A stretch of DNA of 64,000 bases from a virus: IMG/VR virus record IMGVR_UViG_3300044678_003030, positions 1 to 64,000 of that record; one strand, given 5' to 3'. The number at the start of each line of letters is the position of its first letter. Position 1 is the stretch's first letter. A program made the translations under genes and the position numbers. Shown in pieces: positions 726 through 62,633 of the stretch. The notes under the pieces are model-generated. The model worked only from the letters and a program-made list of their open reading frames with translations. It did not search any database and was not told the origin of the DNA.

Positions 726-1299
726 GGTCTCCGAGAGAGACAGATGGGGCCAAAGCATCCACGTCTTCAGGTGCGCGTGCGACACGTCGTTGCGGTGCAC
801 CATCTCGTGCAGCGCGAGCGGCACGCAAGCCCATCTCGCTCTTGAGCTGTCGGTTCTGTACCTCCAATCCCTCGACTCGTCGTCGCAGGTGCTTGAGCTC
901 ATCGCGACGACGTAGATCATCTCGGATGTGTCGGGCGACGAGCAGGCCAGAGACGCACAGCTCACGCGCTCGATCCCAGCGAGAGCGCCAGTCGACGTAA
1001 GCGTCTCCTGACAGCTTGCCCTTGTAGAGCTTGGCGCTGCTGTCGATGTCGTCGAGTCGCTCTTCGTGGAGCCTGACTTGCAACTCAGCTTCATGGTGGT
1101 CCTTCGCCGTAGGAACAAACATCGAGTCGTCGAACGCGACGAACGAGTGGGGGAGACCCTCAGACTTGCAGAAGGTGTCGAGGCGGTGGATGACGGAGGC
1201 GAGAGACTCACCCGGGGTCACCCACACACGGATGCGGTTGGCGCCCTCACGGCACACGTCGGCGCTGCCGCGAACGAAGACGATGTCGAGGCCGTTCAC
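685..1299 (-). CDS. hypothetical protein with C-terminal coiled coil
   Basis: GTG start at 1299 overlaps the upstream TGA inside a TTCAC-N3-GTGAA palindrome. Confidence 0.6.
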   Translation of the reverse strand: MNGLDIVFVRGSADVCREGANRIRVWVTPGESLASVIHRLDTFCKSEGLPHSFVAFDDSMFVPTAKDHHEAELQVRLHEERLDDIDSSAKLYKGKLSGDAYVDWRSRWDRARELCVSGLLVARHIRDDLRRRDELKHLRRRVEGLEVQNRQLKSEMGLRAARAARDGAPQRRVARAPEDVDALAPSVSLGDHGESDEGPPGDSP

Positions 1300-1493
1300 G
1301 GAGTGAAATCGTCCTTGGAGTCTTCCTCCTCGACGACCTCGCGCAGCGTCTTGCGGCAAACGCAACAGCGCTTGTGCGCCTCGTCGACGTACACGGTCTC
1401 CAATGAAGTCTCTGGTAGCGGGCACTTGAGGCAGTAGTAGGCACCCTTCTTGATCTTCCACCCGTAGTGGGACTTGTTCATCACATCACCCAT
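1296..1493 (-). CDS. small Cys-rich (zinc-finger-like) protein
   Basis: CLKC...CCVC; ends FTP* within the palindrome. Confidence 0.55.
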   Translation of the reverse strand: MGDVMNKSHYGWKIKKGAYYCLKCPLPETSLETVYVDEAHKRCCVCRKTLREVVEEEDSKDDFTP

Positions 1494-1624
1494 CCTGCGA
1501 TGAACCCTGCCAGCAGGGACAGCGCCAGTGCGGTTGCGTAGATCAGAGGAGAGAACGATTCGTCGCGCCGTGGGCCCCGTCGATTGTCGATCTCGACAGG
1601 CGGCACGAAATCCCGCGTGGTCAT
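1481..1624 (-). CDS. small membrane protein
   Basis: ATG 1624 overlaps the upstream stop; C-terminal hydrophobic helix. Confidence 0.5.
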   Translation of the reverse strand: MTTRDFVPPVEIDNRRGPRRDESFSPLIYATALALSLLAGFIAGWVM

Positions 1625-59799: not shown

Positions 59800-59803
59800 C
59801 GGC

Positions 59804-62605
59804 TTACCCGCTTTGGGTGCTCATGGGGAGGAGCTGCGTCGAGGAGTTCTCGATCTTGACGATCACCTCGCCCATGCCTTCGAGGACGTCTCGTAGGCGC
59901 TGCTCAGTGGTCGTGTAGTCGTCGCCGCCGATCTGCTGCTTGATGTCCGCCTCGTGCAGGTAGAACAGCAGCAGGATGCGAGCGACGTTGTCGAGCGCGC
60001 GAGTCAGAGTGGGCAGGTACGCCTGCGTGAGGCTGCGCAGGTTCGTCTGCTGCGCGAGAGACGCGATCGCGGCAGCGTCGAAGGCGCCCGCGTCATCGAG
60101 AGCCGCAGCCGAGTCGAGGAACGCAGGGTTGATCTGCGCAGCGACGTTCTCCGGCGTGAGGTCCTCCGTCTTCATGGGGGCGGGTGGGAGTTGCGGCTGC
60201 CCCTGCATGCCGCCCATGCCGCCCATGCCGCCCATGCCGCCCATCATCGATGGGTCCATGCCACTCATCTGGCCCTGCATGCCACCCATCTGGCCCTGCA
60301 TGCCGCCCATCATCGACGGGTCCATGGGCTGCCCCTGCATGCCGCCCATCATCGACGGGTCCATGGGCTGCCCCTGCATGCCGCCCATGCCACCCATCTG
60401 GCCCATCATCGACGGGTCCATGCCACCCATCTGGCCCATCTGGCCCATCTGGCCCATCATCGACGGGTCCATGCCACCCATGCCACCCATCTGGCCCATC
60501 ATCGACGGGTCCATGGGCTGGCCCTGCATGCCGCCCATCATCGACGGGTCCATGCCACCCATCTGGCCCATCATCGACGGGTCCATGCCACCCATGCCCA
60601 TGGGGGCCATGGCCGGCATCCCTCCTGGTCCCATCGACGGGCCGCCCATCATGGAGGCTGCTCCCATCGGTGCAGCCATTGCCCCGCCACCCGCCGCGAT
60701 CTGCTGCGTCCTCATCTGGACGGTCTGGAGCATCCGAAGTTGCTCCTGGAGCGCGGCCATCTGGTTCTGCGTGACCTGCATCTGTTCAGCGACAGCGAGG
60801 TCTACCGGCGACGGCTGCGGGGGACCAGCCATCGCGGCCATCATCGCCGGGTCCATCGGCGCGGCGTTCGGGTCTTGCTCAGGGGCCTCAGCGGGCGCAG
60901 CGCGCTTGACTCGCCAGAGGCTCGACGGGTCTCGTGCCTGTGCGAGCTTGAGAGTCGCTTCGGCGTCAGCGATGGAGACGTTGTAGTGCGTCGCGACCTT
61001 GACGAGCGCGTCGAGGTAGCGCACGGCCCGGCGTTCTCCGGCGACCAGGAAGCCATCACCTGCGGTCTTCACCTCGACGGGCGTACCACCCCGCTTGAGG
61101 ATCTCAGCCTCGGCGGCGCGCAGTACCTCTCCCTGGCTCTGGTAGAAGTTCGACGCCTTGAGCTCGTTGAGCCCCCACGGGTTCTCCGTGTCGACCCACT
61201 CGAAGTCGGCGCCGAAGTGGTAGGTCGTGTCGTTGTGGTAGATCTTGTTGTCTGCGCGGGCGGCGTCGACGTGAACCCGCTTGCCGTATCCGCCTTCGAA
61301 GTAGTAGCCGTGCTTGGACTCCGCGATGTTGGAGGCCCGCATGGGCGACGTGGCGCGGACGGTGAGGCCGCTCGTCGAGACCAGGAAGCCGTGACGGTTT
61401 GCGGTCGGACGCTTGATGAGGCGCGATCCGAGGAAGGTGCGGATGTCCTTCACGCTCGACGGCTTGATCGCCTCGGCGAGAATGCTGGTCACGGTGGTCG
61501 CCCGCCCGTCCTTCAGCACGACGAGGTAGCGGTTCGTCTTGCGCGTCTCCGAGGCGTAACACGCCTCCAGTTCGACGGGGTTCGGGATGATCAGCGCCTC
61601 GACAGCACCCCCCTTGCGCAGGTAGACCCGGTAGACACCTGCGCTCTCGGGTTCGACGACCTCCATGGGCCGCTCGGCGAGCGCAAAGAGGTCATCAGTC
61701 TTCTTGCGCTTGTCCTTGATGTAGAAGCCCTTGAGCGCGACGGCCTTGTACGCGGCGCTGGTCTCTGCCCCCAGCTCGCGCTTGGCCTCTTGGATCGGAG
61801 TCGACGCCGTCATCAAGAAGACATCGTGCTTGACGGGTTCTTCGCTCGTCGCGGCGGTCTTTGCCGTTCGGGCGAGCATCGAAGCGAGCACGGTCTTGCC
61901 GTAGACCTCGATCGCGCGGTTGCGCAGACGGGGATGCCTGTCAAAGAAGCGCTCGTAAGCGATCTTGACCGCGTCCGGGGACCGCGAGACCACAGAGGGA
62001 AATGAGAGGTCGGACTCATGGTGCCCGTCGTTGACACGCACCGAGCGGAGCCACGCATCCGGCTCGTACGACGCCAGCACCGTTCGTCCGAACGTGGTCG
62101 ACGGAGGCAGGCGCGAGAGAATAGGCTCGTTGAGCTTGGAGTTGTCAGGCCGGTCGGACGGAGATCCGAGCGTCGAGAGAACACCCTTGCTGATTGAGCG
62201 GAGGTAGTCGGCGTCGAGCGGGCCGAACATGTTGGTTCGCTTGGAGTAGAACATGTCCAGCGGCTTGACCGCGTTGTCGGAGATCACGACAGGGACGTCG
62301 ATCGTCTCGTCGCCGTTCATGATCACGAACGAACCGACACCACGGCCCTCTGCGGCAGAGACGTCCAGCGGAACGAACGTGAGCACGCTTGCGACGAGCT
62401 CAGGCATCGCCTTGCCGAGCGCGGTGTACGCGAGCTCGCGAAACCCGTCGCGGAAGATGTCGTCTTCGTCTTCGCCCGTCTGAGGCATCTGGTAGCTCTG
62501 GGCGCCGGGAGACTGCGTGAGTTCGAAGGGGGGCATTTTGGTAGCCACTGCTCCTGATGGGCGAACGCCCGGTTCTCCCAAGGATAGGGAGACCGGGCGT
62601 TTCAC
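59804..62605 (-). CDS. 933-aa head-associated protein with a Met/Gly/Gln low-complexity insert
   Basis: VPVVISDNAVKPLDMFY N-terminal domain; K-x-A sites; MDPSMMGQMGG repeats; GTG start inside a palindrome. Confidence 0.75.
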   Translation of the reverse strand: MKRPVSLSLGEPGVRPSGAVATKMPPFELTQSPGAQSYQMPQTGEDEDDIFRDGFRELAYTALGKAMPELVASVLTFVPLDVSAAEGRGVGSFVIMNGDETIDVPVVISDNAVKPLDMFYSKRTNMFGPLDADYLRSISKGVLSTLGSPSDRPDNSKLNEPILSRLPPSTTFGRTVLASYEPDAWLRSVRVNDGHHESDLSFPSVVSRSPDAVKIAYERFFDRHPRLRNRAIEVYGKTVLASMLARTAKTAATSEEPVKHDVFLMTASTPIQEAKRELGAETSAAYKAVALKGFYIKDKRKKTDDLFALAERPMEVVEPESAGVYRVYLRKGGAVEALIIPNPVELEACYASETRKTNRYLVVLKDGRATTVTSILAEAIKPSSVKDIRTFLGSRLIKRPTANRHGFLVSTSGLTVRATSPMRASNIAESKHGYYFEGGYGKRVHVDAARADNKIYHNDTTYHFGADFEWVDTENPWGLNELKASNFYQSQGEVLRAAEAEILKRGGTPVEVKTAGDGFLVAGERRAVRYLDALVKVATHYNVSIADAEATLKLAQARDPSSLWRVKRAAPAEAPEQDPNAAPMDPAMMAAMAGPPQPSPVDLAVAEQMQVTQNQMAALQEQLRMLQTVQMRTQQIAAGGGAMAAPMGAASMMGGPSMGPGGMPAMAPMGMGGMDPSMMGQMGGMDPSMMGGMQGQPMDPSMMGQMGGMGGMDPSMMGQMGQMGQMGGMDPSMMGQMGGMGGMQGQPMDPSMMGGMQGQPMDPSMMGGMQGQMGGMQGQMSGMDPSMMGGMGGMGGMGGMQGQPQLPPAPMKTEDLTPENVAAQINPAFLDSAAALDDAGAFDAAAIASLAQQTNLRSLTQAYLPTLTRALDNVARILLLFYLHEADIKQQIGGDDYTTTEQRLRDVLEGMGEVIVKIENSSTQLLPMSTQSG
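60203..60605 (-). repeat. coding tandem repeat (about 7 x MDPSMMG units with GQM/GGM/QGQP spacers)
   Basis: Recurrent CCCATCATCGACGGGTCCATG. Confidence 0.9.
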
Positions 62606-62633
62606 GCCGTGAACTTGGTGCGCGGAGGCTTGA

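Follow-up and report, generated by a model that had tools for sequence, protein, structure and literature searches.

A lattice of evenly spaced 13-bp palindromes on a phage genome and an orphan ParB/KorB-family protein as its predicted reader

The cytidine triphosphate (CTP)-dependent clamps of the ParB family have known uses in centromere binding (ParABS), division-site regulation (Noc) and plasmid gene silencing (KorB). Noc of Bacillus is a ParB-family CTPase that works without ParA, at palindromic sites (NBS) scattered over the entire chromosome and in a role other than segregation (PMC8429893; PMC7383237), while KorB of the IncP plasmid RK2, whose operator OB (TTTAGCSGCTAAA) is a 13-bp palindrome spread over the replicon with no single centromere, works as a CTP-gated clamp, sliding as far as ~1.5 kb away from OB to reach promoters (PMC11790492). 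Dispersed palindromes have also been described in the Cluster O mycobacteriophages such as Corndog, which carry a 17-bp dyad repeat, TGTTCGG-NNN-CCGAACA, in ~34 copies over 69.8 kb (~1 per 2 kb); these repeats are found both between and within genes, have few near-misses and were predicted to bind a dimeric protein, their function being left unknown, and Corndog lacks both a parAB system and an integrase, and no stable lysogens were recovered from it (Cresawn et al., 2015, PMC4351075). Here we analyze a further case, the 13-bp palindrome TTCAC-N3-GTGAA (TTCACNNNGTGAA), which recurs along the IMG/VR virus record IMGVR_UViG_3300044678_003030 and which is probably read by the phage's own ParB/KorB-family protein, P0001. 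The window, that is, the whole stretch originally inspected, comprises the first 64 kb of this 93,956-base record, which CheckV rates as 53% complete, so that the full genome should measure about 177 kb.

An initial annotation of the window, made from its letters alone, had counted 30 perfect copies of the palindrome, and all of them lie at exactly the starts it gave. None of 100 dinucleotide-preserving shuffles of the window yielded any copy. Extending the scan, as that annotation had proposed, to the whole record and to related genomes gave 40 copies on the record, against 0.04-0.23 expected and none of the reversed pattern used as a control, and revealed the motif in four relatives as well. 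Under an order-4 Markov null for the 94 kb, 0.23 perfect, 4.1 one-mismatch and 40 two-mismatch copies are expected, whereas 40, 7 and 42 were observed; the motif is extremely sharp, since perfect copies are far above expectation and near-misses are close to it. Both one-mismatch copies reported in the window (13570 and 14672) are real, although two more (11073 and 27682) had been missed, and the GC content, estimated at 65%, was measured as 63%. When every 5-mer palindrome with a spacer of 0-6 bp was counted de novo, TTCAC-N3-GTGAA was the single outlier, and arm spacers from N0 to N15 other than 3 bp gave 0-1 copies each, as did everted and direct arrangements of the arms. The single N0 copy, at 5420, is without parS flanks.

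The copies are also evenly placed. Over the record the gaps average 2302 bp with a coefficient of variation (CV) of 0.40, compared to ~0.96 under uniform random placement (P<5e-5), and the evenness is also significant against a null that places half of the sites at gene boundaries. The coordinates bear out the earlier statement that 23 of the 29 gaps in the window measure 1.3-3.0 kb, and spacing is even in four genomes. The exact and even array is confirmed on this record, and extrapolation from 40 sites in 94 kb gives roughly 75 sites per full genome.

To describe the anatomy of the site, 79 copies from three genomes were pooled, giving the consensus t-TTCAC-B-S-V-GTGAA-a. The ten arm bases are invariant, the center of the spacer is G or C in 75 copies, and A never occurs at the first spacer position nor T at the third. 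The base before the site is T in 41 copies and A in 9, and the base after it is A in 38 and T in 14. The exclusion of A before and T after the site, as originally proposed, therefore holds inside the window but is a mere preference over the larger set, while the symmetry of the flanks stands: the information is strand-symmetric, as it would be for the site of a dimer. No information was detected beyond one nucleotide on either side of the site, nor any partner motif at a fixed distance, so the whole signal lies within 15 bp, and its confinement and symmetry fit a homodimer on double-stranded DNA. In one relative (G003), 14 of the 18 copies read TTCACG-N-CGTGAA, and the element, first described as two arms with a 3-bp spacer, is more aptly regarded as one 13-bp palindrome whose innermost arm base is relaxed.

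Considering that half of the copies on the record lie within genes, we assessed whether selection acts on the DNA or on the encoded peptides, using genes called by a simple self-trained caller (108 genes, 92% coding). Synonymous-codon shuffling within genes left on average 0.69 coding copies (maximum 3 in 300 shuffles), in comparison with the 20 observed, so that the enrichment survives a codon-corrected null as it does the Markov one. The called proteome offers just 29 peptide contexts able to encode the motif, and 20 of them carry it; together with the excess over synonymous shuffles, this indicates that the choice of codons, and of some amino acids, has been adapted to accommodate the word. 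The motif holds GTG and TGA on both strands, which makes it unreadable in one of the three frames. These results, along with perfect half-sites at orthologous places in diverged relatives, agree with the early view that the constraint is on DNA rather than on protein.

Nine homologs of P0001 with 55-87% identity were found in public data, and further relatives were reached by pattern scans. A metagenome contig (L007), ~87% identical in nucleotides to 69.3-90.5 kb of the record, keeps all seven sites of that stretch. G001 (43.8 kb, GC 58.5%, ParB 56% identical to P0001) has 23 copies, G002 (39.7 kb, GC 67.4%) has 16 and G003 (51.7 kb, GC 59%, RNA polymerase (RNAP) ~64% identical, ParB 34% identical) has 18; the density of the motif in the four relatives is the same as in the record, over a GC range of 58-67%. 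Spacing was again more even than random, with gap CVs of 0.57 in G001 (P=0.005), 0.54 in G002 (P=0.01) and 0.26 in G003 (P<5e-5). G001 and G002 are collinear with the record, and 11 of the 22 mapped copies in G001 and 7 of the 16 in G002 lie within 20 nt of a copy in the record. Because pairs of shared sites were selected in a way that sets the identity of their half-sites at 100%, the test used instead was the fraction of copies of the record with a perfect orthologous copy, which is 10/15 in the range alignable to G001; six copies are common to all three genomes. Shared copies have intact arms, although their spacers differ and identity in the surrounding flanks is ~50%. The other copies have been gained or lost, which implies that density and spacing are maintained, beyond the individual sites. 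A copy 145 nt upstream of the ParB gene is kept in both G001 and G002, each of which adds a copy just past the end of that gene.

Other descriptions of the element were rejected. A composite promoter or operator with a partner motif is at odds with the lack of information past one flanking nucleotide; an intrinsic terminator or REP-like hairpin, with the weak hairpin, the missing T-tract and the absence of any conserved flank beyond that same nucleotide; and a mobile repeat, with the conservation of just 13-15 bp and the orthology of copies across genomes.

A search of the record for a ParB-like or helix-turn-helix (HTH) protein, which had been suggested at the outset, identified P0001, a protein of 399 amino acids encoded at 79585-80784(+), beyond the end of the window. 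P0001 matches ParB-like families in PHROG and the Pfam family HTH_ParB (42.7 bits against a cut-off of 22.6), and phmmer aligned it with Spo0J, ParB, Noc and KorB chains of solved structures (E 5e-8 to 6e-4); its LVAGRRR and ENLDR segments align with the GERR and ENLQR nucleoside triphosphate (NTP)-binding boxes of solved ParBs. When an AlphaFold2 (AF2) model, used for fold search alone, was submitted to Foldseek, the top matches were all ParB, Noc or KorB, over ~200-220 alignment columns including the N domain, with Noc structures scoring best and the DNA-binding domains 6s6h, 6y93 and 1r71 among the matches. A homodimer model of the C-terminal region (residues 305-399) scored 0.58 while the best control scored 0.00, with its runs agreeing in at least 73% of contacts and a pLDDT of at least 61; the mark it attained was reached by 20 of 30 solved pairs and by one of 23 single chains. 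P0001 thus has a recognizable ParB-type HTH DNA-binding domain and, from the modeling, a predicted C-terminal dimerization domain. Apart from a sigma70 region-2 protein, Pfam detected no further HTH family in the 108 called proteins, nor any in 80 small proteins scanned separately.

The resemblance of the half-site to parS, already pointed out in the initial annotation, gains weight from the ParB-family protein encoded in the same genome and from the way in which the motif tracks ParB across relatives. The TTCAC arm corresponds to positions 3-7 of canonical parS (TGTTTCAC|GTGAAACA), or to positions 2-7 with the preferred preceding T, and the alignment of P0001 with Spo0J and ParB spans boxes II and III as well as the HTH. 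In ParB, R173, which is invariant in the chromosomal proteins, hydrogen-bonds G1 of parS (Jalal et al., 2020, PMC7383237), and further contacts are made by Q162, G170, S172, N178 and R204 (PMC7383237). In the alignment to solved ParBs, P0001 keeps the equivalents of Q162, G170 and S172 but has Ser for R173 and Gln for N178, and the phage site carries no information at the position of G1 in the 79 copies; the Ser replacement and the uninformative position are consistent with P0001 being the reader. The differences from canonical parS are nonetheless clear, as the half-sites of the 16-bp parS TGTTTCACGTGAAACA abut and the phage arms lie 3 bp apart, with three extra central base pairs, an unconserved G1 and Ser in place of R173. 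A canonical parS that recruits the host ParB was rejected because the spacer is present and G1 is missing.

Chromosomal ParB-parS sites cluster near the origin, whereas the phage has tens of sites genome-wide. No ParA ATPase match was found, AAA_31 having no match in the record, G001 or G002, and the N-terminus of P0001 has no ParA-binding motif of the LG[KR]GL type (as defined in PMC12704722). Among sister genomes that are collinear with the record (G004-G007, RNAP 63% identical), G007 is a complete genome of 172 kb with terminal repeats, and it has neither a ParA (AAA_31, CbiA) nor a tyrosine integrase. Classical ParA-driven partition, including that of plasmid-prophages, is unlikely because ParA and integrase are missing even from this complete relative.

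The phyletic distribution of the motif follows that of the protein. Judged by RNAP, the closest phages in culture are Salmonella phage Arash and Vibrio phage D69 (31-33% identity), whose complete genomes contain no copy of the motif and no P0001 homolog; Arash is devoid of any palindrome array. When 1.84 billion representatives were searched with a profile of the protein, the matches comprised 17 proteins at E<1e-30 and 248 at E<1e-10, of 350-430 amino acids and with the same architecture. The ParBs of G004-G007, which form one branch of this family, are 29% identical to P0001 with a different recognition helix, and these four genomes have no copy of TTCAC-N3-GTGAA. They have a sister lattice in its place: G007 carries TACG-N-CGTA in 46 copies against 1.7 expected, with the consensus cTTTACG-S-CGTAAAg, and G006 has 12 copies with a CV of 0.43. 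Between branches with differing ParBs, then, the whole lattice differs by one arm base, TTCACG as opposed to TTTACG; that tens of sites changed together points to one reader with a specificity that would have shifted. Other words are also overrepresented in G007, namely TCGA-N5-TCGA (48 copies against 1.7 expected) and CGTCG-N4-CGACG (24 against 0.7).

Among described systems, KorB-OB of RK2 is the closest mechanistic analog. KorB, like P0001, is a ParB-family protein with an HTH, and its 13-bp palindrome is likewise dispersed over the replicon without a single centromere; its slide of ~1.5 kb matches half of the spacing between phage sites, and the G003 form of the site shares the 6+1+6 layout of OB (TTCACG-N-CGTGAA compared to TTTAGC-S-GCTAAA). 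The layout and the dispersal are therefore both seen here, and reading by a ParB-family protein would follow by analogy. The two systems differ in that the replicon is a phage and not a plasmid, the sequence of the site is distinct from the KorB operator, the sites are denser and more even (40 in 94 kb) and many lie in genes, and neither a ParA/IncC partner nor a KorA-like clamp-locking partner was found. Noc offers a precedent for a ParB-family protein without ParA acting at scattered palindromes in a role other than segregation, as proposed here, although its site is different, no N-terminal membrane-targeting helix is evident in P0001 and the density of the phage sites is much higher.

The Cluster O repeats share with the phage array invariant inverted arms separated by three variable bases, tens of copies and a genome without lysogeny functions. 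Their arm is different, however, their AAA/TTT spacers track the direction of transcription and they crowd at the right end; our scan of the Corndog genome found 35 copies of the 17-bp repeat, unevenly placed and with A/T spacers. As arm and distribution differ, the resemblance is a likeness of kind, with no homology of the sites; Corndog is also an unrelated type of phage, a 70-kb siphovirus of an actinobacterium. Corndog gp90 (L017, 54424-55932), annotated as having a ParB-like nuclease domain, contains a ParB_N domain, and its alignment with the P0001 profile starts in the N domain and extends as far as an HTH-like segment (hhalign probability 63%, E 7e-5), which makes gp90 a candidate reader of the 17-bp repeats.

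We consider it fairly probable, judging from the sequence comparisons, that the palindromes are ParB-type loading sites with P0001 as their predicted reader. The 13-bp palindrome would be the specific site of a homodimeric phage protein, most likely the ParA-less ParB/KorB-family protein of the phage itself, and binding, clamping and sliding by P0001 are expected by analogy: each site would load an NTP-gated clamp that slides 1-2 kb, as ParB and KorB do, and a site every ~2.3 kb would let P0001 cover the whole replicating chromosome instead of one centromere. Such a coat could serve to compact or mark the genome, to shield it or to control transcription genome-wide, and the sites in divergent promoter regions and beside start codons fit the last of these options. 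Several observations weigh against this interpretation. The link between protein and site is correlative and comes from one phage lineage, in which any lineage-specific protein would correlate equally, and 47% of the genome is missing while most of the proteins are ORFans that could hide another DNA binder. The Pfam ParB_N match of P0001 is sub-threshold at 15.8 bits, and its AF2 model, built from a 10-row alignment, has a mean pLDDT of 56, with ~75 in the HTH and <50 in the N domain. G003 has the same motif despite a ParB that is 34% identical and has a partly different recognition helix, implying that helix sequence and site do not correspond one-to-one. Finally, the contrast between 40 perfect copies and 7 near-misses exceeds what sets of transcription-factor sites typically show and is more like that of an enzyme's site.

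One alternative is that the sites are read by another dimeric DNA binder, either a phage ORFan, perhaps encoded in the missing part of the genome, or a host factor, while the ParB-like protein acts otherwise. That most phage proteins match no family, that the record is just 53% complete and that G003 keeps the motif with so divergent a ParB all speak for it, as does the existence of phage ParB-fold proteins with non-centromere roles such as the activators of T-dioxygenases (PMC13229309). Those ParBs have no DNA-binding domain (PMC13229309), however, whereas P0001 has one. On the same ground, and as no Tet_JBP-type family appears in the Pfam lists, a T-dioxygenase activator was rejected as an identity for P0001. 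Moreover, the arm is identical to the core of parS and the sole HTH_ParB protein is encoded in the same genome, ParB-less relatives are without any array, ParB is most diverged in the sub-lineage whose arm base has changed, and a host factor is unlikely to have stayed constant across phages of 58-67% GC. We therefore regard a different binder as rather unlikely.

Recognition by a DNA enzyme (a methylase, a base modifier, a nicking or cutting endonuclease, or a topoisomerase) that marks or processes the chromosome at regular intervals would account for the all-or-none sharpness of the motif, whose CAC-N3-GTG core is an interrupted palindrome of the DraIII type, and genes for an HNH endonuclease (3-464(-)) and for a class-I S-adenosylmethionine (SAM) methyltransferase (13586-14200(+)) are present in the record. 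The latter, however, matches generic small-molecule families and no DNA methylase families, a further 35 occurrences of CAC-N3-GTG outside the full motif are neither enriched nor avoided, and nicking of both strands of the palindrome would break the genome about 75 times, which leaves an enzyme site as very unlikely. An RNA hairpin, UUCAC-NNN-GUGAA, punctuating operons by processing, stability or translation coupling at gene junctions would agree with the position of 21 of the 40 copies within 30 nt of a gene boundary (4.3 expected), with the six copies that supply a start or stop codon and the several that lie 3-25 nt before starts, and with the flanks, which, when oriented by transcription, have A downstream in 27/40 copies and T upstream in 15/40. 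Yet the hairpin is weak (-1.8 to -2.7 kcal/mol), the stem never covaries, its sequence being invariant in at least 79 copies, the spacer constraint is strand-symmetric, and twenty copies lie deep in genes, including mid-gene in the longest, with convergent and divergent intergenic copies besides; the GTGA within the motif explains its use at junctions as convenience and not as function. Such a role for the transcript appears highly improbable. We attach equally little probability to replication or recombination signals at about the length of Okazaki fragments, whether priming sites for the primase-like protein of the phage or orientation-independent Chi-like sites that would guard its linear DNA against host exonuclease. 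The even spacing of ~2.3 kb does lie in the size range of Okazaki fragments in bacteria, a palindrome could function in either orientation, and the record encodes a primase-like protein of 1158 amino acids (84237-87713). The primase and Chi sites that are known, by contrast, are short asymmetric words on single strands, and the host would set the sequence of a Chi-like site, whereas this motif stays the same across phages of 58-67% GC and switches with the phage sub-lineage.

If loading of a ParB-type clamp at the palindromes is the correct interpretation, coating of a whole viral chromosome would be a fourth use of the ParB clamp, set apart from the known ones by the absence of ParA and integrase in the complete relative, and it would offer a candidate explanation for the Cluster O dyad repeats, unexplained since 2015. 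As a tentative and somewhat doubtful generalization, one lineage of large phages, in which neither lysogeny nor ParA genes were detected, may coat its replicating genome with an orphan ParB-type clamp loaded on a lattice of ~75 sites, the coat shielding or organizing the DNA as a protein nucleoid or self-mark, or silencing or timing its expression, with site and clamp co-evolving between sub-lineages (TTCACG as opposed to TTTACG arms). Literature searches turned up no account of a lattice of ParB-type sites on any phage that lacks lysogeny functions. The system lends itself to direct testing, comprising a 399-aa protein and a 13-bp site with an arm identical to that of parS, and the relatives provide a natural specificity series: the relaxed inner base, the 6+1+6 form and the sister lineage with one arm base changed.

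With respect to genes, the record has 20 copies wholly inside them, 6 across a start or stop and 14 between them, with neighboring genes in tandem, convergent or divergent orientation; in the window the figures are 14, 6 and 10, in agreement with the initial estimate of about half inside genes. That estimate had been accompanied by the argument that even spacing regardless of promoters favors a structural role over classical operators. The evenness holds, in four genomes, but the placement is not indifferent to genes, as the enrichment at boundaries shows, and this enrichment, together with that in divergent regions, keeps a KorB-like regulatory role compatible with the spacing.

The six copies in which the motif doubles as a start, a stop or an overlapping GTGA junction are all in the window. 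The first, 1295-1307, supplies both the GTG start of 685-1299(-) and the overlapping TGA stop of 1296-1481(-), and 3712-3724 likewise overlaps two gene ends, the start of 3270-3716(-) and the stop of 3713-3835(-). At 13225-13237 the GTGAA arm supplies the TGA stop of 12328-13236(+), and TGA stops are also supplied by 37758-37770, to 37759-38550(-), and by 49540-49552, to 49541-50233(-). The copy at 59699-59711 overlaps the start of 59095-59703(-) and has orthologous copies in G001 and G002.

Four divergent intergenic regions hold copies, at 9492-9504 (4 nt from the start of 8795-9487(-) and 63 nt before 9568(+)), 20719-20731 (12 nt from the start of 18967-20706(-)), 41415-41427 and, past the window, 76504. 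The copy at 22530-22542 is in a convergent region. Three intergenic copies closely precede start codons: 11568-11580 by 24 nt (start at 11605(+)), 27846-27858 by 15 nt (27874(+)) and 29278-29290 by 6 nt (29297(+)), where the spacer and the next G form GGAG, which is Shine-Dalgarno-like. Also intergenic are 24336-24348, abutting the stop of 24349-25092(-), 51061-51073, with an orthologous copy in G001, and 62601-62613, the last in the window, with orthologous copies in G001 and G002.

Mid-gene copies in long genes are the outcome that a spacing requirement would produce, and they occur at 33246-33258 and 34595-34607, both in the 1336-aa gene 30808-34818(+) and the former deep within it, at 71564 in a 1690-aa gene and at 86120 in a 1158-aa gene. 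Deep in the 556-aa gene 5948-7618(-) lies 6602-6614, and the 622-aa gene 54314-56182(-) contains 55376-55388. The other copies inside genes of the window are 3627-3639 in 3270-3716(-), 15803-15815 in 15484-15915(+), 18198-18210 in 17913-18242(-), 25959-25971 in 25905-26522(-) and 3 nt past the stop of 25342-25956(+), 35224-35236 in 35157-35699(+), 43612-43624 in 43434-44699(-), 45909-45921 in 45618-46220(-), 52726-52738 in 52618-53031(-), 53239-53251 in 53028-53390(-) and 57341-57353 in 56182-57606(-), the last two with orthologous copies in G001. In the same numbering, the ten copies past the window start at 65334, 68167, 71564, 74270, 76504, 79428, 81052, 83124, 86120 and 91074.

Downstream of the window the record also encodes multisubunit RNA polymerase beta/beta'-like proteins, at 65353-67086(-) and 68890-73962(-) (PHROG; Pfam Rpb1/Rpb2). 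The sigma70 region-2 gene, 80854-81702(-), adjoins the ParB gene in convergent orientation and contains the site copy at 81052. Most of the large proteins of the record are without a Pfam or PHROG family, and the record looks like a member of a poorly sampled phage lineage. A gene-free stretch of 1.2 kb (7618-8795), which holds no copy of the 13-bp motif, contains nested inverted repeats with arms at 7744-7925/8236-8417 (182 nt, 82% complementary), 7671-7710/8451-8490 (95%) and 7586-7617/8544-8575. The 1336-aa protein encoded at 30808-34818(+) shows a weak match to inorganic pyrophosphatase (InPase) over residues 67-148, and a second protein of the record matches InPase too.

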